The notes: generated by a model from the letters alone, not told the origin. A stretch of 55,310 nucleotides of DNA from an uncultured archaeon (GCA_964353745.1 CAYGWD010000003.1:1-55310); one strand, 5' to 3'; shown: positions 1,959 through 21,146, counted from the first letter of the stretch. Numbers and translations: made by a program.

Positions 1959-4900
1959 TTAAGAACCTTTTTCTTTTATGGCGACTGGTGATTCACCTGC
2001 GTGCCATGACTGTCTTGGACGCACCTGAATGTTAAAAATTCTCTCAGAATTGTCATCTAATATCAAGGCCGCACCCTTGTTCTTCGGTAGCTCTCCTAAA
2101 AGTTTTCTTATGTCAAACAAAAGATAGGTTTGCATTATGGCAGACAAAGCCTCGACATCTGGTTTGGCCGTTAATCTGTGCGCTATAACCAAATCCGCCT
2201 GGGAAATTGCATCTCCATGAATCTTATCAGGTCTCTGTGTTATTAGGACTAAGCTTACGCCAGGCTGCCTTCCTTGCCTTAACAATGTTAGCAAATCGCG
2301 AGTGGCCGGAGTCTCCCCCTCATCTGGCAAGTATTCGTGACAATTATGAACTATACAGCCATTAGCGACAAAGTTATGAACGTTGGAGACTGAAATATCA
2401 TAAACCTTTTCTAAGCCCGCATCTTCTTTTTTTACTATCTTCTCAAGAATTAAATTGTTTTTATAACTTGATTTTAGCCATTCTTCGAATCTTGGAAATT
2501 CCAATTGAGGAACAGAAGCTTTTCTGCCAAAGTATATCCATTCCCTCACCATATAATCCAGTATTTTCAGAATTTTTGATATTCTTATTTTTCCTAAACC
2601 TGTTTTATGCAACTCTATACATTTTAAACGTAAGTCATCCCTTTCTTTTATCAATTTTTGTTTGGCCTTCAAATAAGACAAAACTAGATTTCCCTTAATT
2701 TCTTTTTCTTCACAGTATCTATAACCGATCTTCTCTAAGAAATTTATCATGTTATTTGTACTGTTTGAAATTGTTAAAACAAATTTCATTGTTTTTATGC
2801 CATCTTTTCTGATATTACCTTTTCTTTTACTTATGCCAACTTTAACATCAAAAGTTTCAAAAAGTTGTTTTAATTGGTTCGCATATTCAAAACCATTTTT
2901 TTCAAGTTCTATGCTTTTATTAAATGAAAATCTAACAACATCAAACCCAATAGGAGATTTTTTAGATACGTTTGGCATGCTGCCTTCACTTCCCATTAAG
3001 GACGCTAAAAATTCTGCTTTTTCTTCTTTTGTCGCGTTTAATAACCATTCGGGCAGTAAAAATTGATTTAGAACTTTTTTACCTCTGGGGACCTTTAAAT
3101 CAAAAAAGAAGTTGCAAGCCTTTGCACTGCTATGGACTTCTTGAGTTTTTCCAGAAACTTCTAATATTTTTCCATCATGAGTTTTAATTTTAGAATGGGT
3201 TTCTCTTGAATAAATGCTGCCTGATGAAAATCCTAAAGCTTTAAGATTATTTTTTATTTTTTCCAAATCTTTGCTCTTTCCTGAAAATCCAGTTTCTTTT
3301 GAACATAACCATCCGTCTCCAAATAAATGCCCTACTAACCTAGCCGTAATTAGTTTTTCATTAGAAGAATAATGCTGAATAACGGGCAATGACACTTCTT
3401 CTGCAGATTGGGCTGGTGTAAACCCGTTAGAAGTTAATATCTTATGTTCTGGTGTGCATTTTAATTCTCTCCCGCTTTCTGTAATTAATTTTATAATATT
3501 TCTTTCGCCTTTTTCATAAACATTATCTACATCAAAATATCCATATTCCTTTTTATCCGCATCAAACCCTAAAACCTTAAATTTTTCGCCGTTTTTAAAT
3601 CTCTCCACTATATTACCTATTGGTGTATGCGCTTTTTCAGTTATTACCACAGACTCGTACGGTAAGCATTCATCAATGGTGATCCAAGTCATAGGAACTC
3701 TCTTAGTCGCCTCTCCTCCTGTCAATTCCATTTCTTCTATCCTTCTGGCAGCCATTCTTGCCTGATATATTTCCCTGCAGAGAATGCCTATCATTAAACT
3801 TCTGACATTGGTCTCTTGCAAAGACACATCCAGAACAGTTACAACCCCAGGATTGAGAAAGTTCTCTATTGAGGCCGATTCTTGGGAAAACACCCCCCAG
3901 CCTTTTGATGATAAGAACCTGTTTTCCAAAATCATCTTTTCCTTTTCATCAGACCTCTTATCGCTTCCTATTTCGCTGATTATATCTTCTATGGAATAGT
4001 CTCTTCCTTGAAGTTTTTTAATTATCCTCTCCAGCAAGATACCGATAGGATCAAATAAACTTATGTTAAAGGTCAAGGCCCAGTCTGCTGCTGACAATTC
4101 TGAAGGTTTTATTGAGAAAATTCCATCATATGAAATGCCGTACTTGTCGTAGTATGGTTTCATTCCCATCGGTATTATGATTTTCACATCAAAACCTCTT
4201 GGCTTTAGATTCCATTCTGTCAGTTCCATTAGCTGCCTGTCGTTCGGGTTTTTCATTGACCAAAATATCCCCATGGTGTCTATCATTAAACAGGACAAAT
4301 TCTGTCTCACTTCATCAGGTAGTTTTGTCACTTCTTCGGCTATGACAGCTGATGTGTAACTATTATGAACGATTATATCATTTGCGACAAAGTTATGCAA
4401 TTCAGGAACAGAAATGTCATAGACATCAAACTCGCCTTCTAACTGTTCAATGAGAACTATCTCATCCCAGAAAATATCAGATGTTGCTAAAAGGTATATC
4501 AACTCGTTATTATCAACTCTGGCTATCTGCATTAGCTTTTGTCTAGAAGGAGAATAGTCTATGCTACTCCTTAATGCTTTAGGGGTGGTGTAACCAAAAT
4601 ATCTACCACATTCTGCCCAGTTTTTCGGTCTGTACATATCCCAAATCTCTTGAGGCACGGTATCTACATTAGGGTTTCTGTTTATGTCTGCAATTTCTTC
4701 TAGACATATGTTCTGTTTTCTCGACTTTTCGCCAAAGAATCCTATTTCCTGTATAAATCTGGTTATATTGTCGGTTCCTATAGTTATTTCAAATGAATCA
4801 AAAATCTTGCAATTTATCTTCGTATATTTTTTCCTTATTCTTGACAATATTCCGAATCTTAGCAGCAAATGTTGAATCTGATGTATCATTTTTTCAGAAG

Positions 4901-5867
4901 AAGAACTGTAGGAAATTTCCCATACAAAACCATGAGAAGTTTTATGCTTATAGATGCTTCCATCGCAACTAAATAATCTGTTTAGAAACAACGATAAATC
5001 TTCTTTTTTTAAGTTAAATATTTCAGATGGGATGAACTTTTCTTTTGAAAGTTTTCCGTAAATTTTAATACTTTCAAGCCATTTTCTTATTGAGCTTTTT
5101 TCAGCTGGAGCGTAATTCCCTTTGCCAAAACAACCATTATTTTTAAAAACCAATTTCATTTTAGAGGTGTCAATTTTTCTCTTTTCTTTGACAACTCTGT
5201 AAGAACCAGGACCATGATATCCTATTTTTAGGTTAGCGTCAAAATCTTTTACCGCATTAGAAAAATCCTCGTTTATCTCTTTATTTGAATTACTAAACAA
5301 AACGAAATTGTTTCCCAAATGGCCTTCTGCAAGAAGATATGATAATAATTTAATTTTATATTTTTCCATTGTTTTATTTCCAAAATTCTCTATTTTTCTT
5401 GGGGTAGCTATTCTGCTTCCTATGGTTAGTTCCTTTGCATCCTTCCATCCTCTTATTGTTAATAAAGGGTGTTCCGGAGTAAGTTTTATTTCCTTACCAC
5501 TTCTTAATTTTATACGCAAAAGTTTGTCGACTTTTCTTTTGAAAAATCCCTCTTTTTCAGCAGAAGATATTTTAAACTTATCATTAAGGGCAAAGATATT
5601 ATTATTGTTATTTTCAAAATCTTTTATTGGAACTAAAGAACCATCATTCAACGGAATAAGTGTATTTCCTTCAAGACATTTGCCCGATCCGCGTTTGCCC
5701 GTTATAAGTATAACATGGGGTCTTAAGACGTCCATTAGAATTGGATTGGTTAAATGAAAATCAAAACCTTTCCCGACAACATGCTTTCCCAAGAATATAC
5801 AACCCTTATCTCCGTAAGCTTTGAGGTCCTCAGGTTCCCTTCCTATTATTATTCTCTCTACAGCCAT
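1959..5867 (-). CDS. HerA/FtsK-superfamily (DUF87-type) ATPase with two inteins; about 421 aa after splicing
   Basis: Spliced Walker A GKRGSGK|SYT, Walker B ITIDE|CHEYLP, RQGRQPGVSLVLITQRP motif; two C...HN intein blocks. Confidence 0.88.
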   Translation of the reverse strand: MAVERIIIGREPEDLKAYGDKGCIFLGKHVVGKGFDFHLTNPILMDVLRPHVILITGKRGSGKCLEGNTLIPLNDGSLVPIKDFENNNNNIFALNDKFKISSAEKEGFFKRKVDKLLRIKLRSGKEIKLTPEHPLLTIRGWKDAKELTIGSRIATPRKIENFGNKTMEKYKIKLLSYLLAEGHLGNNFVLFSNSNKEINEDFSNAVKDFDANLKIGYHGPGSYRVVKEKRKIDTSKMKLVFKNNGCFGKGNYAPAEKSSIRKWLESIKIYGKLSKEKFIPSEIFNLKKEDLSLFLNRLFSCDGSIYKHKTSHGFVWEISYSSSSEKMIHQIQHLLLRFGILSRIRKKYTKINCKIFDSFEITIGTDNITRFIQEIGFFGEKSRKQNICLEEIADINRNPNVDTVPQEIWDMYRPKNWAECGRYFGYTTPKALRSSIDYSPSRQKLMQIARVDNNELIYLLATSDIFWDEIVLIEQLEGEFDVYDISVPELHNFVANDIIVHNSYTSAVIAEEVTKLPDEVRQNLSCLMIDTMGIFWSMKNPNDRQLMELTEWNLKPRGFDVKIIIPMGMKPYYDKYGISYDGIFSIKPSELSAADWALTFNISLFDPIGILLERIIKKLQGRDYSIEDIISEIGSDKRSDEKEKMILENRFLSSKGWGVFSQESASIENFLNPGVVTVLDVSLQETNVRSLMIGILCREIYQARMAARRIEEMELTGGEATKRVPMTWITIDECLPYESVVITEKAHTPIGNIVERFKNGEKFKVLGFDADKKEYGYFDVDNVYEKGERNIIKLITESGRELKCTPEHKILTSNGFTPAQSAEEVSLPVIQHYSSNEKLITARLVGHLFGDGWLCSKETGFSGKSKDLEKIKNNLKALGFSSGSIYSRETHSKIKTHDGKILEVSGKTQEVHSSAKACNFFFDLKVPRGKKVLNQFLLPEWLLNATKEEKAEFLASLMGSEGSMPNVSKKSPIGFDVVRFSFNKSIELEKNGFEYANQLKQLFETFDVKVGISKRKGNIRKDGIKTMKFVLTISNSTNNMINFLEKIGYRYCEEKEIKGNLVLSYLKAKQKLIKERDDLRLKCIELHKTGLGKIRISKILKILDYMVREWIYFGRKASVPQLEFPRFEEWLKSSYKNNLILEKIVKKEDAGLEKVYDISVSNVHNFVANGCIVHNCHEYLPDEGETPATRDLLTLLRQGRQPGVSLVLITQRPDKIHGDAISQADLVIAHRLTAKPDVEALSAIMQTYLLFDIRKLLGELPKNKGAALILDDNSERIFNIQVRPRQSWHAGESPVAIKEKGS
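2343..3668 (-). mobile_element. Intein 2 in HerA-like ATPase (442 aa, LAGLIDADG endonuclease), inserted in Walker B
   Basis: Starts CLPYESVV, CTPEHKILT, VGHLFGDG and FLASLMGSEG, ends VYDISVSNVHNFVANGCIVHN followed by Cys+1. Confidence 0.95.
4362..5678 (-). mobile_element. Intein 1 in HerA-like ATPase (439 aa, LAGLIDADG endonuclease), inserted in Walker A
   Basis: Starts CLEGNTLI, block B LTPEHPLLT, LSYLLAEG and FLNRLFSCDG endonuclease motifs, ends VYDISVPELHNFVANDIIVHN followed by Ser+1. Confidence 0.95.
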
Positions 5868-5890: not shown

Positions 5891-6466
5891 TTATATAAAC
5901 AAGCCAGCAAAAGCTATTGCCGTTACCAGAAGCCAAACCTTCAAGTTCCATGACATAATCTTAGAGCCGTCTAAAGGCGGTATTGGCAAAAGGTTGAAGA
6001 ACGCCAGGAAAAAGGATATGCTGGCAGTGGTTAAGAACAAGCTCAAGGGATAGACAAAGTTCGCCAAAAGAAGAGAAACGGCAAGAGATATGTTTATCAG
6101 AGGACCTGCAAGGCTTATTATAGCGTATTGCTTGTTTGTCAGGTGGGAGACCCTGAAAGCAAAGCCTTTCTTATAGGGCGATACGTAAACTGCCCCAGGA
6201 GCAGCAATTACGAACCCTCCTATAAAGGCTGTTATCAGACCCAAAGCCAGACCTAAAGGCCAGACCTTATACTCTGCATCGCAACCAAAGTGCTGAGCCA
6301 CGAACTTATGCCCCAATATCTCATGAGAAAGAAAAACAACCAATACTATGAATATGGTTGATATGAGATTTTCTATTTTAAATGAACTGAAAACAAGGGC
6401 TAAGACAAATACGGATATTATCAAGTCTCTTATCTCATTCTTAGTGAACATAAAGATATTTCTCAT
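5891..6466 (-). CDS. Site-2 protease family (M50) intramembrane metalloprotease
   Basis: Hydrophobic segments; HEILGH metal motif, SLAGPLIN, FNLLPIPPLDG. Confidence 0.88.
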   Translation of the reverse strand: MRNIFMFTKNEIRDLIISVFVLALVFSSFKIENLISTIFIVLVVFLSHEILGHKFVAQHFGCDAEYKVWPLGLALGLITAFIGGFVIAAPGAVYVSPYKKGFAFRVSHLTNKQYAIISLAGPLINISLAVSLLLANFVYPLSLFLTTASISFFLAFFNLLPIPPLDGSKIMSWNLKVWLLVTAIAFAGLFI

Positions 6467-7648: not shown

Positions 7649-7838
7649 TTTTAGAGAAAGGATAATAGAGAACTTGAAGTATCATCCAGAAGGCCTGACT
7701 ATACTCAACATAGCAGGAATCACAAGAATAAACAGAGCAACAGTATCTAAATACATCTTCGGCTTGGTTTCTGAAGGCCTGGTTACTCAGAGAAGGGTAG
7801 GTACTGCAAAATTGTGTTATCTAAAGGTGGGTAAATGA
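7635..7838 (+). CDS. Stand-alone winged-HTH protein, paralogue of the upstream gene's C-terminal domain
   Basis: HPEGLTILNIAGITRINRATVSKYIFGLVSEGLVTQRRVGTAKLCYLK; overlaps both neighbouring genes. Confidence 0.8.
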   Translation: MQENNFRERIIENLKYHPEGLTILNIAGITRINRATVSKYIFGLVSEGLVTQRRVGTAKLCYLKVGK

Positions 7839-8527
7839 AATCATTAGCTAAATCATTGGTAGGAAAAATCTCAACAACAACAGTCTTCCTAATAATAATT
7901 GTTGTTTCATTACTAATTTTGAAAGAGGCCGAGATTGTTAAGGCGCAGAACGAGTCTAATATTACAGGTTATGAGATAGCAGACCTTACTCTGGAAAACA
8001 ATACATCTTCTTCAAGTCCTAATACAACAGACCTTCTTAATAATATCTCGAATGAAACTCAAATTACTAATGAAACTTTCATTGAAAACGTTACGAATAA
8101 TGAGACATCCGAAATTGTGAATGTTAGCGACGAAACCTTTGAAAACATTACTGTTAACGAGACCGAAATTTTAAATGAAACTCTAATTTCAAATGAGACA
8201 TCTAATGAGACTTCTCAAGAAATTAATGAAACTCATTCAACTGAACATAATTTTTACACAAGTCTGGACTATCCTAGAAAAATAACAAGAGGAGAAATTA
8301 TAACAGCCAAGGCTACTGTGACTAACAATGATTCTTCGGAAGCTAAGAATGTTGCTCTTGACTGGGAAATACCGCAAGGATTCGGAATAGTTTCTGGCAA
8401 TGAAAGGGAATTCTGCGGTGACTTGAAACCTAGCGATGTTTGCAATAGTGAGATTATGCTAAAAACAGATGTTTTGACACCTGTTGGGTTGAGCGAAATC
8501 AAAGTTGTGGTGAGTTATGAAGAGTAG
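7835..8527 (+). CDS. Secreted/membrane-anchored glycoprotein with Asn-Glu-Thr-rich stalk and C-terminal Ig-like (CARDB/S-layer-type) domain
   Basis: N-terminal hydrophobic segment; repeated NET sequons; YPRKITRGEIITAKATVTNN..AKNVALDWEIPQGF..GDLKP Ig-like pattern. Confidence 0.75.
   Translation: MKSLAKSLVGKISTTTVFLIIIVVSLLILKEAEIVKAQNESNITGYEIADLTLENNTSSSSPNTTDLLNNISNETQITNETFIENVTNNETSEIVNVSDETFENITVNETEILNETLISNETSNETSQEINETHSTEHNFYTSLDYPRKITRGEIITAKATVTNNDSSEAKNVALDWEIPQGFGIVSGNEREFCGDLKPSDVCNSEIMLKTDVLTPVGLSEIKVVVSYEE
8050..8235 (+). repeat. Low-complexity NET (Asn-Glu-Thr) coding repeats
   Basis: aatgaaact/aatgagac recurring; NETQITNETF..NNETS..NETEILNETLISNETSNETS..NETH. Confidence 0.75.
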
Positions 8528-11500
8528 TGCTAAATCAGGACAGAGCCAGTTATTGATTCCTGTAATCATAATTCTAAGTTCTATATTAGCTCTGGCAGCG
8601 AACACAACCATAAACGCTTTGAATTCAACTTCGAATGGTTCAACCATAACAGGAAATATGATAGGCATACCGCAGACAATAGAGCAAAGCTTTCCAATAG
8701 AAGTATGGGCTAACACTTCTATAAGACTAGAAATAGAAGAAAGTCTGGTCAGAGCTACTTTGTTATTAGACAATGGGACTTTGCTTGAAAACCAGCAAAT
8801 AGACCTTTACGTTAATAACACGGTGTGGGGTTCTGGTTTAACTAATACTGAAGGATTTGTTAATTTTCCTGTTAGTGAAAAAGGTGTTGTAAAGGCTAGG
8901 TTTAACGGTGGTGATTTTCTTAATCCTTCTGAGAATCAGATTGATGCCAAAAAATTTGAATCAAGGAAAGTAAATGTTTTATTCGAAGAATTAAAACAGG
9001 GCAGGGCTATAATAGGTGAGCCTGTCAAATGGACAAAGAAGATAAGAATTAAAAATGAGTTGAATCAAAAGACATTTTTTGATGCTTCAGATTTCGTTCC
9101 TAAAGATGCTTTTAACGCCTCATTATCTGGTGGAATCTTAAACGATACTTTTTCGGAAAAAACCAAAGCCTTGGAAGTAGATGAAACTAAGGAATATATT
9201 ATAGAATATTTTACAGAAGCTCCGAAAACCTTTGAAGAAATAATAAACAAGTACAAGAAACTAGTAACCGTGAGTTCGGATATTAATTATAGCGACATAA
9301 CAACTTATACAGACATTGAAGAAGCAAAACAGGAATCAATAAGACTTTACTGGTTTGTTGATAGTAAAAAAATTGATGTTACTCATGATCCATCAATAAA
9401 CCTTACTTTCATTGACACGAACAATGATGATCTGATTGATAGGCTTAAGTGGATAACGCCTCATACTTCTAATCAAACATTTGAAGTAACTATTACAGTG
9501 TTAAATGTTCATACTGTTGTTAAAAACTATGAGAATTGGACAGTTGCTTTTGATACAACAGGCCAGGCAGATTTGATAATTAATTCTACTAATGCCAAAT
9601 GGACTGAATTCTTAACAGATGATGCTTTAACACAAGATGAGATGAAGTTCTTGGAGATAAGCTGCGGCAACAATTCCTTGAAAAGCTCTTTGGAATTAGT
9701 GGATGAGAATGATAATTATTATAATTATTCAGAGCTTGAGGGAGATTCGATAAAAATCAAAAAACTCTTGATAAGAAATTATAGTTGCGATGAAACAGGT
9801 TATTTAATAAATAATATGTTTATTGCAGGTTATGCGACATTACAATTTACATTCGGTGATCTAACAGCTCTTGCTTATGATGACCCTGGTAATTTAGTAT
9901 GTACTGCTGTTAGTGGAGCTTGTCCAACATCATCAACTGATTGTAATGGAGCTGGTGCTACATGCAATTATCCTACATGTGTCTGCAATGTCACAACAAA
10001 TCAAACAATTGATGCTAATGCAAAATATAATTTTAAATCATTGATAATTCCTTCTACAATTGTTGTTAAAGTAAGTATAAATGCAAGCGGTGGAAGTGGT
10101 GGTTCTGGAGGTGTTGCACCTGGCGGTGGGCAAGGAAATGGTACAAACGGAACTGCTGGCTATTGGGGTTATGGAGGAATAAGTGGATATGGTGGAAACG
10201 GTGGAAGCTCTAATTCTACTCATGGAATAAGAGGATATAACAATATAAGTTCTGGTAGTGGTGGAGGAGGTGGTGGTGGTAAAGCAGGTGATTATATAGG
10301 CTTCAATGGTGGTGCTGGCGGGAATGGGGGAAATGGTGGCGGTTATGTTATTTTCAATGCAACCAATTTCATAAATATTTCTGGAACTTTAAATGCAAAT
10401 GCTACAAATGGAGTTGCGGGTTCAGTTGGGCTTAATTGTGATTCCGCAAATCATTTATGCGGTTCTGGTGGAGGAGGTGGTGGTGGAGGCGGTGGAGGTG
10501 GAATTTCTTTAATTGCTTATACTGTAAATATCACTGGAATTTTGAATGTAAGTGGTGGCAATGGAGTGAATGGAGGGGATGGAGGTGAATGCATAGCAAC
10601 TTGGTCAGGTACTGACGGATCTGGAGGAAATGGCGGGAATGGAGGAAATGGCGGATTTATTAACATCTCTGCTTCTTACATTTATAACACATCTACAATT
10701 GATATTAATGGAGGAAGTGGTGGAGGCGGTGGAACCGGCGGCAGTTATTGCACTGGCACGGATGGAACAAATGGCAGTAGTGGTTCTTCTGGATCATCTG
10801 GAGTTATTGCACTTTTAGCAGTAACACCATTACAACCTGCAAACGCAAGCACTATTTACACAACAACTGTAGACTTGAATCTTACAGTTAATTCTTCTAA
10901 GGCTATTAGCATTCCTACTAGAGTTTATGTAGATGGTGTTTCAAAATGTTATAATAATTCTCTTCCAAACGGAACTTTATGGAATTGCACTGTTAGTGGA
11001 TTGTCTTACGAAACTCACACTTGGTTTGTCGCAGCTTACACTACTTATATAGCCTATAATTCTACTCCTTTTCAATTTACCGTGGCAGACAATGTACCGC
11101 CTACCTACTCTAACAGTGCAACAAATACAACTAATGCAGGTAGCCCCTGTGGTTTTAATTTAACATGGAATGATAATGTTGGTTTAAATTCAGGAGGTAA
11201 ATATATTTTCTCATCAAACAATTCTGGCTATTGGAAAAATTACACTGCACCTTTGCAAACACCAAATATATTTTACAATTTTGGCTATAATTCCACATAT
11301 TCAACAACAAATAGCAATCCTGATAGTGCAACTAATTCCATAACAGATTATTATTATAATAGAGCAAATGTTTCAGATAATAATAGATTTGATTTTACTG
11401 CATCATTAAAAGCAAGTGCACCAGCAGGAAGTGAAAATTTTACTCACTACAAGTTTATCTTTAATCTTTCTGATTATATTATTGAAAATATTTCAAGAAT

Positions 11501-14500: not shown

Positions 14501-16538
14501 CAATGGTAATGGTGCGAGTGCTACGGCACAGGCGGGAGCAACAGGAGGCTCTAATGGAGGTACTGGTGGGGCAGTCGGTGGAAATGGTGCAAATGGTTCT
14601 GCTGATATTAATGAAATCTGGGAAGGAAGTCTGGGTACGAATGCATCCGGAGGAAAATATACTACAAACGGATATGGAATAGGCGGAGGTGCTGGTTCTG
14701 GTGGTGCAGGAGGAAATGGCTGTTATTTTGGTGGTGGTTATAGTTTTGAGTCTGGTGGCGGAGGTGGTGGGTTCTATGGTGGTGCAGGAGGAGGGTCTGG
14801 TAGTGGACCCACTGCGGGTTCTGGAGGTGGGGGTTCTGGTTATCCAATCAAATTTACAGCATATTATTTCTACCTGCTTTCTGGAGGTTCTGTAACTGCA
14901 ACTGGAGGAACTGGTGGCACACCGACAACGGCAGGGACAGGTGGTGGTGGTGGAGGAGGAAATATTGTATTTAACATTACTGTTTTCAACACAACATCCT
15001 CAAACCAGATAACCGCAAATGGTGGGAACGGAGGAGTAGGAGACGGTAGTTCAGCAGGTGGTGGAGGCGGTGGTGGAGGTTATATTCATATTTATTATAA
15101 TTCAAACAACAGTGGAAGCATAACTGCCTCACTTGGAACTGGTGGAAATGGTGGTTATTGCACTGGTTCTAATGGAAACGCAGGAGTAATCAGCTGGACT
15201 TCGCAAAATGCATTCCCACAGGGGGAATCAGAAAGCAAAGTCTCAACAGACTACATAGAAGTCAAGGTAATAAATTCAGGCTGGGTAAATGATACTTGGG
15301 TTTCAATGACAGGAACAGGCAATTGGTCTAACGTGACCAAAGTAGTCAACTCAACATTAAATGCCACAATAAGATGGTGTGTCTATGCCAACGATAGTTC
15401 TAACAATTGGAATGGAACTTCATGTTCTAATCCGTTTACTTATAACACAACTGATAATACACCTCCACAATGGGTTGTTAATAGCAACTCGACTAATACA
15501 ACTGTTGCAGGTGCACCAGCTAACTTCACTCTAAACTGGACAGACAATGGTCAGTTAGCTGGATATATCTTTTCTACGAACAATACGGGAACGTGGAGGA
15601 ATTCATCGTATGTTAGTTTCTCAGGTACTCAGAACATTTCTTGGAATGTTACTACTCTTAATACTACTGTTGGATTAAAAGTATCTTGGTGCTTCTATGC
15701 TAACGACACTTATGGGAATATGAATGCTACAAACTGCCAGAATGGCAAATGGTTTAACTTGACTACAATTGATGGAACACCGCCACAATGGGTCGCTGGA
15801 AGTAATTCAACCAACACGACTTTGGCTGGACAACCAGCTAACTTCACCTTGAACTGGACAGACAATTATCAACTAGCAGGCTACATATTCTCCACGAACA
15901 ATACGGGAACGTGGATTAATTCGTCATATGTAACATTTAGTGGTGTGACCAACACGTCATGGAACGTTACTGTGCTGAACTCGACTGTTGGTAGTGTCGT
16001 ATCATGGTGCTTCTATGCGAACGATACCTATGGAAATATGAATGCTACTAACTGTCTGTCAGCTAATTGGTTCTTATTGAATACAAGTATGGATGTCTCA
16101 TTCAAAGTGACAATACCAAATAACTCAATAACATTCTCTTCAGGATCAGGAAATGCAACTCCTCCTGAGGATATAAATGCTACATCAACAACTATTGCAA
16201 ATGTCAATCCTTGCGTAAGAGGAACAGGCACGTGCCAGAGTGCGTCTGTAGCTAACTTCAGAATAAACAACACTGGCAATGTCAATGAGAACATAACCAT
16301 GTGCATTAATGAAAGCCTAGCCTCTTCAAAAATGGTATTGTTTGGTACGCTAATCAATGATCCTTATAATAATCCTACTAATATTACAAACTGCTCATTA
16401 GGTGGTTGGATCGCTAACTCATCCTTACCTATAGGTGCTTCAGACGAATTTTGGATATGGACCAACTTTACAGGCGTTGCTGTAGGCGACGACACCCAAA
16501 GAACGCTGTACATAAACGCTACGCAGTCGGGAGCGTAA
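8517..16538 (+). CDS. Giant (2673 aa) secreted surface glycoprotein/adhesin: repeated Ig-like modules, two jelly-roll-like inserts, two glycine-rich domains, C-terminal filament-subunit-like domain; no C-terminal membrane anchor
   Basis: Uninterrupted 8 kb ORF, N-terminal signal, very dense N-x-S/T sequons, recurring D..PP.Y..N.TN.T.AG....F...W.DN..L.GYIFS....W..YAND..GN.N modules, polyGly tracts. Confidence 0.88.
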   Translation: MKSSAKSGQSQLLIPVIIILSSILALAANTTINALNSTSNGSTITGNMIGIPQTIEQSFPIEVWANTSIRLEIEESLVRATLLLDNGTLLENQQIDLYVNNTVWGSGLTNTEGFVNFPVSEKGVVKARFNGGDFLNPSENQIDAKKFESRKVNVLFEELKQGRAIIGEPVKWTKKIRIKNELNQKTFFDASDFVPKDAFNASLSGGILNDTFSEKTKALEVDETKEYIIEYFTEAPKTFEEIINKYKKLVTVSSDINYSDITTYTDIEEAKQESIRLYWFVDSKKIDVTHDPSINLTFIDTNNDDLIDRLKWITPHTSNQTFEVTITVLNVHTVVKNYENWTVAFDTTGQADLIINSTNAKWTEFLTDDALTQDEMKFLEISCGNNSLKSSLELVDENDNYYNYSELEGDSIKIKKLLIRNYSCDETGYLINNMFIAGYATLQFTFGDLTALAYDDPGNLVCTAVSGACPTSSTDCNGAGATCNYPTCVCNVTTNQTIDANAKYNFKSLIIPSTIVVKVSINASGGSGGSGGVAPGGGQGNGTNGTAGYWGYGGISGYGGNGGSSNSTHGIRGYNNISSGSGGGGGGGKAGDYIGFNGGAGGNGGNGGGYVIFNATNFINISGTLNANATNGVAGSVGLNCDSANHLCGSGGGGGGGGGGGGISLIAYTVNITGILNVSGGNGVNGGDGGECIATWSGTDGSGGNGGNGGNGGFINISASYIYNTSTIDINGGSGGGGGTGGSYCTGTDGTNGSSGSSGSSGVIALLAVTPLQPANASTIYTTTVDLNLTVNSSKAISIPTRVYVDGVSKCYNNSLPNGTLWNCTVSGLSYETHTWFVAAYTTYIAYNSTPFQFTVADNVPPTYSNSATNTTNAGSPCGFNLTWNDNVGLNSGGKYIFSSNNSGYWKNYTAPLQTPNIFYNFGYNSTYSTTNSNPDSATNSITDYYYNRANVSDNNRFDFTASLKASAPAGSENFTHYKFIFNLSDYIIENISRICYNVEGYYILNGAADGYAYIQIKNMTTGSWTGSTNLGTSESITSKCYSSNDFTKTGLINTTDNSTYLSISSEIYCIGPGACTVIPPYTIVYVDYVEINITTNQTNFTSTPQTISYGLVLNPTIGTKVGWCYYASDNSSNWNGTNCQNDNTYFYVTTSDATPPTYTNNASSTISTYTPTGYSNFSITWNDNSGSLAGAYLENNFSVTLTNTSMTGSLTSLPQTFYYNTTPLTAGTYRYRFVANDSSGNTNVTPVLTFTIAQATTTATLYLNNSQTGQTSTYPNSTINATATSSVAGLYVRIWRNGTLIDNVTSTSWNVSQWGAYNNNFTAQVLGNENYSNSALVTLWWNVSKGPTSVSLYLNGTQNNNSYVQNNIANFTAVVNVSGKTVYLDSNYTGWLLQSGTTSIVNYTSLSTAGNFWNLTGYFSGDENYSASSKTYWFNVNETTPPTYFLNSTNSTGAGTLIEFRLNWSDNTALSKAITSLWNGTSWVNASDWCSLSTNPSWCNQTLVVNSTPQQLWWKQYANDTFGNWNTSENFSLLTTPPTLAITIQSPLNQTYNKKWVWSNVTLSQVGSWCGVSLNSTANQTLSNSSTTNWYLNLTAPSEGPNNVKFYCNDTSGNMSSSNTVYFTVDTTPPTYSNNVTNDTTAGKPVQFNLTMNDTLALHPNGQYIFGLDNCTGSFVNDSAVNFTSTPQTISVVKTINSTVGCTIRWYFNFSDNVSNWNNSLVSNPFTFTTISDYPQYSLNSTNGTAAGTPISHNLYWTDNYGLSGYIFSFINGTNGTTTYNFSDTANNKAYNNSVTTEPPTSLTPAGEEEFSSGAYTNISTSDNSYFETSNTTSYSYHKFNITINESINSLTQINVSWEGHTTSTGTANLYVYNFTAGSWGSPLASNTGATDFWLNKSFTSGFSDLITSGRISVLVQDPSTIWTQGNISNCTQGVGYSCNVTQSSTVSSATNFTFDNLVVQPGVTITIQNRTWFNITTLNTSGSIGWINISGTINGNGASATAQAGATGGSNGGTGGAVGGNGANGSADINEIWEGSLGTNASGGKYTTNGYGIGGGAGSGGAGGNGCYFGGGYSFESGGGGGGFYGGAGGGSGSGPTAGSGGGGSGYPIKFTAYYFYLLSGGSVTATGGTGGTPTTAGTGGGGGGGNIVFNITVFNTTSSNQITANGGNGGVGDGSSAGGGGGGGGYIHIYYNSNNSGSITASLGTGGNGGYCTGSNGNAGVISWTSQNAFPQGESESKVSTDYIEVKVINSGWVNDTWVSMTGTGNWSNVTKVVNSTLNATIRWCVYANDSSNNWNGTSCSNPFTYNTTDNTPPQWVVNSNSTNTTVAGAPANFTLNWTDNGQLAGYIFSTNNTGTWRNSSYVSFSGTQNISWNVTTLNTTVGLKVSWCFYANDTYGNMNATNCQNGKWFNLTTIDGTPPQWVAGSNSTNTTLAGQPANFTLNWTDNYQLAGYIFSTNNTGTWINSSYVTFSGVTNTSWNVTVLNSTVGSVVSWCFYANDTYGNMNATNCLSANWFLLNTSMDVSFKVTIPNNSITFSSGSGNATPPEDINATSTTIANVNPCVRGTGTCQSASVANFRINNTGNVNENITMCINESLASSKMVLFGTLINDPYNNPTNITNCSLGGWIANSSLPIGASDEFWIWTNFTGVAVGDDTQRTLYINATQSGA
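15453..16088 (+). repeat. Tandem duplication of a 318-bp (106-aa) Ig-like module within the giant gene
   Basis: Units start at 15453 (DNTPPQWVVNSNSTNTTVAG) and 15771 (DGTPPQWVAGSNSTNTTLAG); shared stretches such as acgaacaatacgggaacgtgga; many differences are synonymous. Confidence 0.9.
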
Positions 16539-16545
16539 ACTATAT

Positions 16546-17142
16546 ATGGAAGAAATACTTATAAATAAAAGTGAAAAAATTATGAAAGACGAGGAAAAAA
16601 TTGCTAAAAAAAGTTCTAAAAAATTGATAATAGTGATTGCAGTTATTATAGTGATAGCGGCAATAGCATTTGGATTCTACAGTGGTATCTTTTCTCTGCC
16701 AACAGGCCTAGTAGTAGGAGGAACAAGCGCAGCAGGAAATCAAAAGAGCACTAATGAAAATCCAGCATCTCAACCGTCATCTGTTCAACAACCTATTTTT
16801 ACTACAACTGGAACAGAGGTTATGACAAAAGATGTGACAGAAAATCTTCCATATTATGAATCTTTAGATTTGGAATCTGGAAGATATTCCCTACAAGTTG
16901 CAACAGATAAACCAGTTTGGATAAGACTTTATGACCAATTACATTTTGATGAATGGAAAAATGACGGAAATCATGGAAAAGTAGTGATTGGAACAAATTT
17001 AGATGAGAAAAGCAAAACGGATAATTTTAACAAGAATTTTGATATAAGCCCGGGCAACGGCGGAAAACACTACTTATTGATTTTTGGAAATAATGAAAAA
17101 ATCTCAATAAAATTTATAATAAAACAAATTTTTAAAACTTAA
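16546..17142 (+). CDS. Single-pass membrane protein with extracellular beta-sandwich domain
   Basis: Basic N-terminus, TM LIIVIAVIIVIAAIAFGF, S/Q/P linker, beta-rich C-terminal domain. Confidence 0.75.
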   Translation: MEEILINKSEKIMKDEEKIAKKSSKKLIIVIAVIIVIAAIAFGFYSGIFSLPTGLVVGGTSAAGNQKSTNENPASQPSSVQQPIFTTTGTEVMTKDVTENLPYYESLDLESGRYSLQVATDKPVWIRLYDQLHFDEWKNDGNHGKVVIGTNLDEKSKTDNFNKNFDISPGNGGKHYLLIFGNNEKISIKFIIKQIFKT

Positions 17143-17160
17143 AAATAGGAGGAATTCAAA

Positions 17161-17742
17161 ATGAGAAAAACAAAGATACTAACATTTATAACCATTATAC
17201 TGATAGGAATAACACTATCGTGCATACCAGCGCTAGCAGCAAGTCTAGAATATACGAGAACAACTTTATACTTCATTGTTGAATCAGCTAATGAGGTGTC
17301 TGTCTTTCTAGTCAATGAAGGTACTGGAACTATATCATCAGGAAGTGGACAGGACTCAACTAACACTCTAAACTTTACATGCCCTGCTACAGATTGTGCA
17401 TGGAAGAATGTAAGCATATCAACTGGTGCAACGCAAACTGATACTACGCCAGGTATTACCATAAGGGATACAGGAACCTCACCTGTTGGAATAAACATTT
17501 CAGTGAACACTTCTCTTCCTACAGGTACAATACCCGCTAGCTGTTTAGATTTAAGATATTCAAACAACACATACGACAGTACGCCGGCAGATGCACCAGC
17601 AGCAGATTTAATCACAACAAATGTGACTCTAGGCAATCTAACGGCAACAGCACAATTTAGCGTCTGGCTATATGGTAACTTTACTGGTTGCCAAGTTCAA
17701 ACAACCCCATTGGCGTTTTATGTTTGGGCGTACTTTTGGTAA
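17161..17742 (+). CDS. Secreted beta-rich protein homologous to the C-terminal domain of the giant protein; putative filament subunit
   Basis: Strong RBS AGGAGG; signal peptide ending ALA-AS; shared SSGSG, Q..I..TG...NI..N.SL and W...NFTG motifs with giant C-terminus. Confidence 0.78.
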   Translation: MRKTKILTFITIILIGITLSCIPALAASLEYTRTTLYFIVESANEVSVFLVNEGTGTISSGSGQDSTNTLNFTCPATDCAWKNVSISTGATQTDTTPGITIRDTGTSPVGINISVNTSLPTGTIPASCLDLRYSNNTYDSTPADAPAADLITTNVTLGNLTATAQFSVWLYGNFTGCQVQTTPLAFYVWAYFW

Positions 17743-17761: not shown

Positions 17762-17911
17762 ATGAAAAAAATGGTTAGCATAGTTTTTACTATAGATGAT
17801 AATCTAGACGAGATGGAAATCATAAAAAACGTTAAGAAGTTTCTTAAAGAAGAGTTTCTAATAGACGATTTAGGACATCATGTGAAACCGATATTAAATC
17901 GACAATATTAA
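17762..17911 (+). CDS. Small hypothetical protein (49 aa)
   Basis: RBS AGGTGA upstream; MKKMVSIVFTIDDNLDEMEIIKNVKKFLKEEFLIDDLGHHVKPILNRQY; fills the gap between co-oriented genes; below ORF-track cutoff. Confidence 0.5.
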   Translation: MKKMVSIVFTIDDNLDEMEIIKNVKKFLKEEFLIDDLGHHVKPILNRQY

Positions 17912-17920
17912 AAAATAGAG

Positions 17921-18847
17921 GTGAAAAAATTGAAAAAAAATAATAAAAAAAGAATTGCCTTATACGCGATAGTTGCGGTGGTTATAATAGCAGCTTTGTA
18001 TTTCATAAACAACCCGATAACAGGCAACGTCATAGCAACAAACACAACGAAAGAATATGATTTTTCAAGGTCGGGAAATCCAGATTATTACAGTTTGTTA
18101 CCATCGATGCCATCTGACTTTAAAGTAATTAAATTAATGTGGCAACAGGGAATAATCAGAGATGATCCAAACAGAATCAACGATTCTTATTGGAAGCAAC
18201 CAGAATGGTGGCCACTTTATTATGAAAACTTTTTATCAACATTAAAATATGTAGTTGAGTCTAACAGAATGCCTGTATGGAGTTTGGGTGTATTTAATTC
18301 TCAGATATACAGAGCTATAAATCAAGAATGGCTTAAAAATGCAAGCAATATTCCAGAGACGTCTGGTCACGGAGAATTAGAAATAAGAGAAAACAGTTTA
18401 ATAGTAAAACATAGATTCTGGTTAAGGGCAGCTCCAGGTGCTGCTAAAATTTATGGAGTTAGAATTTCAGCCGATTATCCTCCAGAAGCTAATTTAATAG
18501 GAATCGTAGCACTTAACATACCGAATGAAACAGTTAAGCAGGACCCTGAAATAACAAAAAAATACATAAAGGTAACGGCAGTGGAAAGGGACTCGGGTCA
18601 AACAGAGTTTAATTTTGGAACATACTGGCCCAAATTGAGTCCTGATTATCTAAAAGAAATTGAGTTAACAGCTGAGATAGATAAAAACACGCCTAAAGGT
18701 ATGTATATAGTTGGTGTAAATGTAGGAGCCCCTTCAAGGGAATATCAAGAACAACAGAGTCTAAAATATCTTTTAGCATATACAGATCCAAACATAGGAA
18801 TGTATAGAGGACCAACTAAATTTGCGTTGTTTATAGAAGTAATTTAG
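17921..18847 (+). CDS. Single-pass membrane protein, extracellular domain ending in an Ig-like segment (start possibly TTG 17930)
   Basis: Lys-rich N-terminus, TM, NPITGNVI motif; C-terminal IELTAEIDKNTPKGMYIVGVNV. Confidence 0.75.
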   Translation: MKKLKKNNKKRIALYAIVAVVIIAALYFINNPITGNVIATNTTKEYDFSRSGNPDYYSLLPSMPSDFKVIKLMWQQGIIRDDPNRINDSYWKQPEWWPLYYENFLSTLKYVVESNRMPVWSLGVFNSQIYRAINQEWLKNASNIPETSGHGELEIRENSLIVKHRFWLRAAPGAAKIYGVRISADYPPEANLIGIVALNIPNETVKQDPEITKKYIKVTAVERDSGQTEFNFGTYWPKLSPDYLKEIELTAEIDKNTPKGMYIVGVNVGAPSREYQEQQSLKYLLAYTDPNIGMYRGPTKFALFIEVI

Positions 18848-18962: not shown

Positions 18963-21146
18963 TTGATTAAAATGAAACTAATCTGCTTATGTTTTTTAAT
19001 TTTATTTATTTTATCAATAGATACAGTTTATGCACAGGATATAGAATGGGTTATGGGTAAAACTTTTTTTATAGTTGATATTAAACCTTGTAATTTTTTC
19101 TCTACGCCAACAGACTGTCAGTCAGTAGTCGGTTGTTGCTGGTGCACTTCTGGCAGCGCTTTTGGTTGTCAAGTCTGCCCTTGCCCAACAGTGCAACCGC
19201 CAACATCGCCGGGAGGTCCGGGAGGAGCCTTCATACCTCCTGAAGAAAAGAAGAACCAAACAAACATCACAGTCACTCCTCTTTCCTTAACAACCAACAC
19301 CATTGAAGTAAGACTATATCCTGGGGAATACGAGATAGTCTCCCTAGGGATAACGAACAACCAACCAGAAAATAGAACCATCAAACTAGGTGTGGAAGGG
19401 GACATATGGCCTTACGTATTGTTCGAGAAGGACACTTTCTCAATAAATCCTGGAGATTCGTACAATGCTAACATAAAATTCTATACTCTGCCAACAACAA
19501 TGCCAGGTATCTATAATGGCAACATCGTAGTCATGTCCGGCAACATCACCAAGAAAGTAGCGGTCATCATGAGGGTCGAGTACAAGCCTGAAAAGTTGTT
19601 GGACATAAAGGTTGACACAATAACAAAGGATGTCTATCCCGGCGACCGCATGAAATACCTTGTCACGTTGTATAATCTAGGCCTGACTAAAAGAGTGGAC
19701 GTGTTCATCAACTATACTGTCAGGTCTGTTGAGAATGATACCATAATATCAAAAACTGGCGAGACGGTAGCGTTAGAAACTTCCCTGTCTTTTGACAGGA
19801 ACATAATAATACCAAACGATACGCCAACAGGTATTTACGTCATAGAGGCTATTGCAGCTTACGAAGATAAGAGAGCTACTTCAATAGCATCCTTTAATGT
19901 TGTAAAGCCCTTCTGGCTAATACCTTTCTTATGGTCCTTGCTAACCAACTGGATAACTTACGTTGTATTATTCATATTGATACCTGCTCTGTATCTTATC
20001 AAGAAACTATACGAAAAACTAAGAATGAAAAGAGTTTACAAGGCGAGATACGTGAGGCCTGTTGACCTTAACAAGCTGCCTAAGAAAGGCCTGCTCGTAG
20101 GCAAAATAGCTGAAACCAATGTTGACGCTTATATTGATCCTGACGATCTGACGACCCACCTGATAGTGGCAGGCGGAACAGGTTCTGGAAAATCAGTGTC
20201 AGCCATGATAATTGCAGAAGAACTTTTGAAGAAAGGAGTGCCTGTTGTTGTCTTTGACCCAACAGCGCAATGGACAGGATTCATAAGACCTTGTACGGAT
20301 AACAAGATGTTGAATCTATATCGTAAGTTCAGAATAAAGAAAGAGGAGGCAAGGGCATTCAAAGGAACAATAATTCAGATAACAGATCCTTTCATGAAGG
20401 TTGAGATAGAGAAATTCATAAAGAAGGGCGAGATAACCGTACTCGCATTGAACAAGCTGACACCAAACCAGTTGGATTACTTTGTAAGAAAGACCATCGA
20501 TTATATGTTCACCATATCGTGGCCAGAATCAAGAGAATTGAAATTGTTGATGGTATACGACGAAGTGCACAGGCTGTTGCCAAAGTATGCCGCGAGAAAG
20601 GTTTCTGCATTGGAAGGCGGAGGCTACATTGCCTTAGAAAGGGGAGTGAGGGAATTCAGAAAGTGGGGAATAGGTTTGGTAATGATATCTCAGGTATTGT
20701 TAGACTTCAAAGGGGCGATAAGAGCTGTCATAGCAACAGAAGCTCAGTTGAGAACGAAATACGAGGGAGACATAAACAGGATAAAAACAAAATATGGTTG
20801 GCAGTACTCAGCAGCCATTCCGAAACTGGAAGTGGGAACCGGTCTGGTGCAAAACCCAGGATACAACAACGGTAAGCCATGGTTCATATCATTTAGGCCT
20901 TTGCTGCACGATACATTCAGGATAACAGACCAAGAACTGGAGTCTTATGATAAATTCAAGAAAGACATAGAAGATTTAAGAAAGGAAACAGAAAAATTAA
21001 AGAGCAAGCAAATAGATACTTATGATATGGAACTGGAGCTCAACTTAGCAGAAGAGAAAACTAAGACAGGACAATTAAGAATGGCTGAAACCTACATAGA
21101 ATCTGTAAAAACAAGAATAGAAACCATTGAAAAGAGGAGAAAGTAA
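18963..21146 (+). CDS. Membrane-spanning HerA/VirB4-like (DUF87-type) ATPase with signal peptide, Cys-rich module and extracellular Ig-like domains
   Basis: Signal peptide, CNFF..C..CCWC..C..CPC, PG linker, two Ig-like domains, TM WITYVVLFILIPALYLI, Walker A AGGTGSGKS, VVVFDPT, Walker B VYDEVH, REFRKWGIGLVMISQ, C-terminal helical region. Confidence 0.88.
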   Translation: MIKMKLICLCFLILFILSIDTVYAQDIEWVMGKTFFIVDIKPCNFFSTPTDCQSVVGCCWCTSGSAFGCQVCPCPTVQPPTSPGGPGGAFIPPEEKKNQTNITVTPLSLTTNTIEVRLYPGEYEIVSLGITNNQPENRTIKLGVEGDIWPYVLFEKDTFSINPGDSYNANIKFYTLPTTMPGIYNGNIVVMSGNITKKVAVIMRVEYKPEKLLDIKVDTITKDVYPGDRMKYLVTLYNLGLTKRVDVFINYTVRSVENDTIISKTGETVALETSLSFDRNIIIPNDTPTGIYVIEAIAAYEDKRATSIASFNVVKPFWLIPFLWSLLTNWITYVVLFILIPALYLIKKLYEKLRMKRVYKARYVRPVDLNKLPKKGLLVGKIAETNVDAYIDPDDLTTHLIVAGGTGSGKSVSAMIIAEELLKKGVPVVVFDPTAQWTGFIRPCTDNKMLNLYRKFRIKKEEARAFKGTIIQITDPFMKVEIEKFIKKGEITVLALNKLTPNQLDYFVRKTIDYMFTISWPESRELKLLMVYDEVHRLLPKYAARKVSALEGGGYIALERGVREFRKWGIGLVMISQVLLDFKGAIRAVIATEAQLRTKYEGDINRIKTKYGWQYSAAIPKLEVGTGLVQNPGYNNGKPWFISFRPLLHDTFRITDQELESYDKFKKDIEDLRKETEKLKSKQIDTYDMELELNLAEEKTKTGQLRMAETYIESVKTRIETIEKRRK

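Follow-up and report, generated by a model that had tools for sequence, protein, structure and literature searches.

A strand-less copy of a small secreted protein ends a giant archaeal surface protein: probable coupling by donor-strand complementation

Introduction

Small-genome archaea commonly have giant surface proteins, and little is known, to our knowledge, of how these are held at the cell. The question is raised by a locus in a 55,310-nucleotide stretch of DNA from an uncultured archaeon (GCA_964353745.1 CAYGWD010000003.1:1-55310; the whole stretch is called the window, and positions are counted from its first letter). Here the gene for a giant protein, P0001, lies a short distance upstream of the gene for a small secreted protein, P0003. 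The original prediction, made from the sequence alone, took the C-terminal domain (CTD) of the giant to be a copy of the small protein, the small protein to be the shaft of a donor-strand fibre and the giant to be its tip adhesin. Of the readings of the locus weighed here, donor-strand coupling between giant and small protein comes out best; it is fairly probable, and the product is probably a surface appendage.

Archaeal bundling pili and cannulae are established donor-strand filaments. In the bacterial tip adhesins FimH and PapG a C-terminal pilin domain has the groove for a donor strand but no donor strand of its own. In type 1 and P pili, the N-terminal strand of the next subunit lies antiparallel to the last strand of the tip domain.

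Homology between the giant's C-terminal domain and the small protein

A BLASTP comparison of the entire giant with the small protein gives a best high-scoring segment pair between giant residues 2570-2656 and small-protein residues 88-179, with 27% identity and an E value of 0.35; with the last 173 amino acids (aa) of the giant alone, the E value is marginal (0.007). Profiles of five sequences each align over 132 columns in hhalign with P 8.9e-4. A hidden Markov model (HMM) of the small proteins has its best domain in the last ~150 aa of all five giants, and an HMM of the CTD matches 5/5 small proteins (E 2.5e-9 to 1.4e-4, Z=1).

At E<=1e-3 an exhaustive search with the narrow five-sequence profile yields 63 representative clusters, of which 31 also pass E<=1e-10. 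These 63 proteins are all 70-205 aa long and none is large; the large partners surfaced only with a deeper profile in searches of genomes. That profile, the family alignment A2, has 59 sequences, five from a word-based search and 54 of the 63 exhaustive-search matches, the nine left out being fragments or short sequences of 70-169 aa. In hhalign, A2 and a profile of the five giant C-termini align over 139 columns with a probability of 99.6% and E 8.1e-25. This profile alignment had been set beforehand as a check on the domain match first drawn by eye; its significance bears out that match, and the BLASTP segment pair falls at the same place. With hmmsearch, the A2 match in the giant spans residues 2522-2670 and profile positions 36-183 (71.8 bits, E 3e-24). 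The profile matches the last ~150 residues of all five giants (E 3.8e-27 to 3.2e-13), and elsewhere in them nothing scores above 2 bits. In the 994-kb genome A2 matches nowhere but at the small gene (E 1.2e-54) and at nucleotides 16080-16526 (profile 36-183, E 3e-22). The homology of the giant's CTD and the small protein is confirmed.

The two copies differ at their N-terminal ends. The strand SLEYTRTTLYFIV (aa 28-40 of the small protein) has no counterpart in the giant match, which starts at profile position 36, after the strand. The giant's copy is without the donor strand, and the N-terminal strand first read as an extra of the small protein is just that. Columns of the donor strand have a conservation of 2.25 bits, vs 1.95 for the mature protein. 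The giant was also said to have no C-terminal membrane anchor, and this holds: its sole hydrophobic stretch is N-terminal (windows starting at aa 7-17) and its C-terminus is polar.

Conservation of the pair across genomes

Among 42 genomes of the order, 8 have profile matches, and among 371 sampled from the phylum, 22 do. Five of the 22 were set aside, as they have only weak partial matches (E 3e-5 to 4.8e-4) inside large open reading frames (ORFs); the remaining 17 have strong matches, with E below 1e-15. Both forms are found in 16 of these 17 genomes, one as a full-length gene of ~190-220 aa and the other as an N-truncated copy at the C-terminal end of a larger ORF. The match of the full-length small genes starts at profile positions 1-12 and that of the large-protein copies at 26-76 (17/17 at 26 or beyond), with 14 of the 17 beginning at position 32 or beyond, past most of the strand. 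At the loci inspected, the truncated copy stops 0-5 residues before the stop codon of the larger ORF, and the larger ORFs range from 250 to 5757 aa.

The two forms share a contig in 15 genomes, on the same strand in 14 and within 900 nt in 13; the gap is 1.9 kb in genome G189, and in G195 the genes are divergent and 2.7 kb apart. In G005 the truncated copy is found alone, at a contig end, and in G007 the two forms are at the ends of two contigs. A variable head is thus combined with a constant strand-less tail, and the strand is supplied with the small gene alongside. Several families conserve this pairing.

One relative, G019, has a large protein whose tail matches profile positions 76-183 only. 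A second partial copy (positions 41-130) is present ~250 residues upstream with a LamG-like stretch between, and the acceptor domain appears rearranged.

Predicted structure of the small protein and of the complex

With A2 as input, AlphaFold 2 (AF2) predicts the small protein with a mean predicted local distance difference test score (pLDDT) of 88.7 and a predicted template modelling score (pTM) of 0.76, as a signal helix at residues 3-20 followed by a beta-sandwich. In this monomer, no strand is assigned to residues 21-45. The complex was modelled from the last 150 residues of the giant (alignment A3, 73 rows) and the mature small protein (A2, residues 27-193). This was the hetero-complex part of the second check proposed for the original prediction, directed at insertion of the N-terminal strand, and the models place small-protein residues 27-43 in the giant's CTD. 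The interface score ipSAE is 0.92, 0.92 and 0.82, vs 0.00 for the best of three controls; the runs share at least 89% of contacts, and the pLDDT of the partner is at least 72. The ipSAE mark used is reached by 58/80 solved complexes and 2/110 mismatched pairs, counts that are only rough with custom alignments.

On the small-protein side the modelled interface includes residues 104-108 and 161-163 in addition to the N-terminal segment, and on the giant side residues 4-10, 16-35 and 126-146 of the 150-aa domain. Small-protein residues 32-38 lie opposite CTD residues 143-137, antiparallel to the last strand RTLYINA, and also alongside CTD residues 23-30, in parallel. The modelled geometry is that of donor-strand complementation, with the N-terminal extension as a strand in the neighbouring subunit. 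The unpaired residues 21-45 of the AF2 monomer and the filling of the giant's homologous groove in the complex may, at the level of models, hint at an open groove in the small protein. The complemented giant domain has a pLDDT of 88-93, vs 72-81 for the small protein with its groove empty.

A strand that has to fit two grooves would be expected to make the groove residues of tail and small protein vary together inside each genome. At the 49 interface columns, same-genome similarity of tail to small protein is above cross-genome similarity by 0.66 per column, and at the other 95 columns by 0.24. The excess is bigger at the groove columns in 12 of 15 genomes. This co-variation is indirect evidence that the small protein may self-associate.

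The locus and its host

The features of the locus are listed in Table 1. The AGGAGG ahead of the small gene, first noted as a strong ribosome-binding site, is found as described.

Table 1. Features of the giant/small-protein locus in the window.
Feature	Position	Strand	Basis and remarks
Giant surface protein P0001	8517..16538	+	ORF, 2673 aa; proposed distal tip/adhesin
Predicted cleavable signal peptide of the giant, aa 1-27, ends ALA	8517..8597	+	Translation and hydrophobicity scan
C-terminal acceptor domain (CTD) of the giant	16080..16535	+	Small-protein homologue without signal peptide and donor strand
P0002, 198 aa, single N-terminal membrane helix	16546..17142	+	ORF translation
AGGAGG, 8 nt 5' of the ATG of the small gene	17147..17152	+	Sequence read
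Small secreted subunit P0003, 193 aa; signal peptide, putative donor strand, Ig-like acceptor domain	17161..17742	+	ORF
Signal peptide of the small protein, aa 1-26, ends ALA	17161..17238	+	AF2 helix 3-20; cut site inferred
Putative donor strand of the small protein, SLEYTRTTLYFIVE, aa 28-41	17242..17283	+	Complex-model interface; column conservation
cl2 protein P0077, 308 aa; N-terminal membrane helix, helical region, beta-sandwich	17921..18847	+	ORF; candidate assembly factor/anchor
cl3 protein P0080, 727 aa	18963..21146	+	ORF; candidate membrane anchor
Donor-strand look-alike IEWVMGKTFFIVD, mature N-terminus of P0080, aa 27-39	19041..19079	+	Same- vs cross-genome comparison

The source genome is assembled as 994 kb in 61 contigs, of which the window is contig 3, and is estimated to be 89.65% complete. 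Most of the nearest Atlas cluster of the small protein is archaeal, Microcaldota (kingdom Nanobdellati, NCBI) being the commonest phylum in it, and the host is probably a DPANN-type, small-genome archaeon. The nearest Atlas clusters of P0003 are unnamed; a match to WxL at 0.81 is a lead only. The signal-peptide segment of the small protein is kept among close relatives. Searches of Pfam and NCBIfam find no family for the small protein, the giant or P0077.

The giant has 178 N-x-S/T sequons, and a Pfam scan of the whole protein finds no family at E<=0.1. Relatives that share its C-terminal domain carry beta-helix/NosD or LamG_3/DUF2341 domains. A word-based search for longer proteins found four, among 8000 crowded candidates scored, which says little on the frequency of such giants. 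The cut site of the giant's signal peptide is a predicted one, placed by the small-x-small rule. A class III (prepilin-type) signal was considered at this N-terminus and set aside, as judged by eye, since the -2 residue is Ser and the ALA cut site follows the hydrophobic core. The giant also has two long glycine-rich blocks, at about aa 525-760 and 1990-2230, and about seven repeats of a ~100-aa module starting TPPTY or TPPQW; G+C is 0.40-0.43 at 12-16 kb vs 0.34-0.36 around it. A 230-aa ORF (7835-8527, +) overlaps the start of the giant by 11 nt. By eye, its N-terminus closely resembles that of a relative giant, P0010, and the window's giant starts otherwise; the 5' ends of these giant genes may be rearranged or split.

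Neighbour genes and a candidate anchor

Gene order was compared in 13 loci from at least six families. A gene of the type called cl2 here (~290 aa, N-terminal membrane helix and beta-sandwich) lies 3' of the small gene in 13/13 loci. It is followed in 12/13 by a cl3 gene (signal peptide, CARDB-like sandwiches, C-terminal membrane helix), and the 13th locus is cut by a contig end. The window's cl2 protein, P0077, is modelled by AF2 with a pLDDT of 77.9. In Foldseek it matches the GH123 N-domain and, weakly, CfaE and PapD-like domains, with E down to 1.4e-5. Compared with the pilin family it has no homology (2 columns aligned), and Atlas gives Ig-like leads only, at 0.80 or below. P0077 is a candidate assembly factor or anchor; a chaperone role for cl2 is a guess.

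P0002, between the giant and small genes, has only sub-threshold family matches, and comparisons with cl2 and with the pilin family give nothing usable (13 and 8 columns aligned, respectively). In five other loci (L041, L042, L043, L045, L046) a shorter cl2 paralogue of 222-243 aa adjoins the large gene. It lies between the large and small genes in four of them and on the far side of the large gene in L042, where the genes are divergent; the corresponding slot in the window is that of P0002, unrelated to cl2.

The cl3 protein of the window, P0080, has a signal peptide, a donor-strand-like N-terminus, a Cys-rich segment, CARDB-like sandwiches, a membrane helix and a cytoplasmic HerA/FtsK-type ATPase. 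The Pfam match is DUF87/HerA, and the best NCBIfam match, to CedD, is partial (41.9 bits vs a cut-off of 600). An ATPase is fused to cl3 in 3/13 loci, the window included; this cytoplasmic end of the membrane protein is found in the present lineage and in G366.

At their mature N-termini, cl3 proteins resemble the donor strand found in the small protein of their own genome; in the window IEWVMGKTFFIVD stands beside LEYTRTTLYFIVE. The mean score of the best 10-mer shared by small-protein and cl3 N-termini is 20.8 within genomes, 11.1 between genomes and 7.4 +/- 1.3 for shuffled sequences, and none of 50000 permutations reached the observed value. Wide automatic windows, without hand-set cut sites, give 23.6 vs 19.8 (p 0.002), and the best match is then between the two mature N-termini in 7 of 11 genomes. 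P0080 and its cl3 relatives are on this sequence evidence a lead for a donor-only membrane anchor. Since the N-terminus of P0080 resembles the donor strand, the small protein could be a short adapter and not a long shaft.

Pfam scans of 15 neighbouring proteins show no signal peptidase and no DUF5305, the only peptidase being of the M50 family (5891-6466), and no PapD-type chaperone or usher. Between the small gene and P0077 is a 49-aa ORF (17762-17911, +) without a signal peptide. The identity of its product is 82-91% in four same-family relatives, and it is far more conserved than the adjacent small protein. On the 3' side of P0080 (21146-24494, +) are genes for a 527-aa cytoplasmic coiled-coil protein with weak SMC/Rad50-like matches, a 333-aa protein with a NEW3/CARDB-like domain and a membrane helix, and then a MinD/ParA ATPase; a MinD/ParA gene is close to the cluster in 10 of 13 loci. 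Farther upstream, a 1302-aa ORF (1959-5867, -) has an intein with a LAGLIDADG endonuclease domain (Intein_splicing E 1.9e-45).

Evidence against donor-strand coupling, and alternative explanations

A number of results weigh against donor-strand coupling. The first of these concern the fold. Foldseek gives no match of the small protein at E<=0.001. In favour of the coupling, every one of the first 15 rows listed is a subunit of a donor-strand filament (AbpA, CS17, thread, CfaB, Csu, Fim, CupE and cannulae), and the top row is the Pyrobaculum bundling pilus 7ueg at E 1.6e-3. Structural re-alignment is best with a Csu pilin (Z 7.8, root-mean-square deviation (rmsd) 4.3, 122 aligned); the FimH pilin domain gives Z 7.1 (rmsd 3.4, 101-102 aligned) and that of PapG Z 6.8 (rmsd 3.6, 105 aligned). 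When 48161 chains are searched without bias, the Csu pilin (Z 7.7, rmsd 4.3, 120 aligned) is level with a sandwich domain of GH115 (Z 7.7, rmsd 2.8, 101 aligned), and no chain reaches Z>=8. Scores for 7ueg, 8aur and 7uii are Z 6.0 (rmsd 4.6, 124 aligned), 5.9 (rmsd 4.2, 127 aligned) and 6.2 (rmsd 3.5, 109 aligned), and TasA-superfamily structures score level with MSP and glycosidase sandwich domains. For TasA, AbpA and CanA, named in the original prediction as Foldseek targets, and likewise for Fim pilins, the fold match does not exceed that to generic Ig-like sandwiches (best Z 7.7-7.8). The modelled fold is compatible with a pilin, without identifying one.

Sequence searches add to this. A2 against the sequences of solved structures finds only AbpX chains, at non-significant E values of 0.21 and 0.95, and none of the 59 family members matches a pilin/TasA-type Pfam family at E<=0.1 beyond single chance-level rows. 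The score of the complex is the model's own confidence, and A3 included small-family sequences; the model is support for binding and not a demonstration of it. The model could show strand-stealing, whereby a strand-less domain is completed by a strand-bearing homologue though its natural strand is in cis; by eye, the last strand (NWFLL) of the repeat preceding the CTD in the giant has the same spacing as the small protein's strand. In three of the 17 large proteins (G004, G020, G233) the match begins at profile 26-29, and a partial strand-like segment is kept. The genomes in the groove and N-terminus comparisons are kin and not independent trials. For the anchor, the cut sites of the 10-mer comparison were set by eye, and in a genome scan for donor-strand look-alikes P0080 ranks 34th-49th of 1648 ORFs, or 11th-25th of the 453 with an N-terminal hydrophobic run. 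The scan did not single out P0080, and the anchor idea therefore draws on the between-genome pattern only.

Several of these points fit an explanation without strand exchange, in which the Ig-like domain is self-complete, the N-terminal strand is the first of its own sandwich, and the paralogues share a binding function, such as one surface or host ligand in common, or a lateral contact. The generic sandwich fold agrees with it, GH115, MSP and PapD-like domains scoring as well as pilins (best Z 7.7), as do the three large proteins with a partial segment and the possibility that the complex reflects strand-stealing by an artificially truncated homologue. However, the 14 large-protein copies that start at or past profile position 32 would leave the domain incomplete unless a strand is supplied, the AF2 monomer leaves residues 21-45 unpaired with their own domain, the strand is conserved above the average of the mature protein, and pairing and gene order hold across several families. 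A self-complete domain is on balance unlikely, though it is the alternative to be taken most seriously.

Less likely again, and rather improbable, is that the CTD is a sorting or attachment tag, similar to those of the type IX secretion system, that is read by cl2 and cl3 (with the fused ATPase in the present case), the small protein being a second cargo or a free copy of the tag. The position of the domain at the extreme C-terminus of very different large proteins and the presence of the two membrane proteins downstream in nearly all loci would suit such a tag. Yet the domain is in only two genes of the genome, whereas sorting tags usually mark many cargoes, and the tag idea leaves unexplained both the extra conserved strand of the small copy, absent from the large copies, and the modelled strand in the groove of the large copy.

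In a domain tree, lineage determines how tails and small proteins group in two clades (G186/G195/G189 and G020/G001/G233), and type does so in the window's genus. The lineage-wise clustering would fit repeated duplication or gene conversion, and a small gene that is a leftover or recombination cassette duplicated from the 3' end of the giant, kept for varying the giant's C-terminus. This is very improbable. The small gene is equipped with a signal peptide of its own and a strong ribosome-binding site, its frame is intact wherever it occurs, and its family comprises 63 representative clusters of ~190-aa proteins. In the window's genus it is only 23% identical to the tail over the domain, too distant for homologous recombination.

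Proposed mechanism

Donor-strand coupling would proceed as follows. The small protein would be exported by Sec and its signal peptide cut after ALA, which would expose an N-terminal beta-strand followed by an Ig-like domain with an open groove. The giant would also be exported, and would end in the homologous domain with a groove and without its own strand. With a groove but no strand the giant could be a strand acceptor only, which would confine it to the distal end, as with the FimH pilin domain. The small protein's strand would enter between the last strand of the CTD and CTD residues 23-30, completing the sandwich. The groove of the small protein could in turn take the strand of the next small subunit, forming a shaft of unspecified length, or alternatively the similar mature N-terminal strand of P0080, whose C-terminal membrane helix would then tether the chain to the cell.

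The shaft and tip-adhesin scheme of the original prediction is thus supported in part, by the homology, the strand-less copy in the giant, the conserved pairing and the modelled strand insertion. Polymer formation by the small protein and adhesion as the function of the giant are parts of it that we infer.

A larger scheme can be imagined, a three-part donor-strand organelle of ultra-small, probably DPANN-type archaea, made of a multi-thousand-residue adhesin, pilin subunits and a membrane protein with a HerA/FtsK-type ATPase. We regard it as a long shot. If true, the external fibre would be coupled physically to a translocase or motor, which might for instance take up DNA or other material of a host cell. 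A donor-strand pilus would then be connected to an ATPase in a way not seen before.

Comparison with known systems

The complex model has the antiparallel strand placement of type 1 and P pili, and the FimH and PapG pilin domains are among the structural matches. The giant's CTD resembles chaperone-usher tips in being a C-terminal pilin-type domain without a donor strand, an analogy of architecture and not membership. The present system is different in that the organism is an archaeon without a periplasm, the neighbours scanned include no PapD-type chaperone gene and no usher, and there is no sequence similarity.

Established archaeal donor-strand filaments also include the threads (PMC9715654), Tafi (PMC11821415, PMC12337348) and AbpX (10.64898/2026.01.04.697558), and predicted tip and anchor proteins are already described for the Tafi and AbpX loci (same sources). 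Tafi of haloarchaea consists of the tip TafC, the adapter TafE, the shaft TafA and the membrane anchor TafF (PMC11821415, PMC12337348). It is likewise a usher-free archaeal filament of Ig-like subunits with N-terminal donor strands. Its proposed multi-domain tip has subunit-like and laminin-G-like domains, and the large protein of one relative here carries LamG_3. Single-pass sandwich-domain membrane proteins, of which Natrinema has two, are proposed to anchor it, and here the small gene is often adjoined by cl2 paralogues. Tafi differs in the use of Tat export, as opposed to the Sec-type signal peptides seen here, and in its signal peptidase and DUF5305 genes, neither of which is seen among the neighbours scanned. 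The subunit-like domain of the Tafi tip is N-terminal, whereas that of the present large proteins, of up to 5757 aa, is C-terminal, and no sequence similarity between the two families was detected.

Polymerisation of AbpX and the TasA superfamily is chaperone-free and by donor strand, and predicted tips co-assemble by donor strand in AlphaFold 3 models (10.64898/2026.01.04.697558). In AbpX donor strands position 4 is acidic, and a cut after ALA would leave the mature small protein with Glu there. However, homology to AbpX is not significant, and the neighbours cl2 and cl3 differ. A dedicated signal peptidase I in the locus, a frequent but non-universal trait of the TasA superfamily, is absent among the 15 neighbours scanned with Pfam.

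In Sulfolobus, the thread protein Saci_0406 has a neighbouring paralogue, the putative cap Saci_0405, that is proposed to end the chain (PMC9715654), and 7pnb is at Foldseek rank 3 for the small protein. Saci_0405 has a donor strand and no acceptor site, whereas the giant has an acceptor domain and no donor strand; the donor-only element here would be P0080. The Pam pili of CPR bacteria (PMC13278184) are donor-strand pili of an ultra-small episymbiont lineage with a monoderm-type envelope. They have a single-domain, acceptor-only tip, PamT, membrane-anchored chaperones, and a terminator whose N-terminus is inserted into the last subunit and tethers the pilus (PMC13278184). They differ in being bacterial and in having pilins of a different, two-domain build.

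Significance

The donor-strand principle is not new. What is new is a sequence family without a Pfam or NCBIfam model, whose best solved relative by sequence is the non-significant AbpX match; the host lineage; the size of the giants and the C-terminal placement of the acceptor domain on them; and neighbours of the cl2 and cl3 types instead of a dedicated signal peptidase. Literature searches on DPANN combined with donor strand or with TasA turned up no account of a system of this kind, and for DPANN giant surface proteins nothing was found on this locus. The small protein is short, cysteine-poor and easy to express, and therefore the key tests are cheap.

To the question of how giant surface proteins stay attached, the locus offers a concrete, testable answer, an anchorless giant with an acceptor-only, pilin-like domain that is predicted to be completed by the strand of its neighbour. 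If true, this would be a fourth or fifth sequence family of archaeal donor-strand filaments, in addition to the threads and bundling pili, cannulae, Tafi and AbpX, and would extend the mechanism to lineages with genomes of ~1 Mb. It would also provide a rule for finding tip adhesins, as large ORFs that end in an N-truncated copy of the adjacent small gene.

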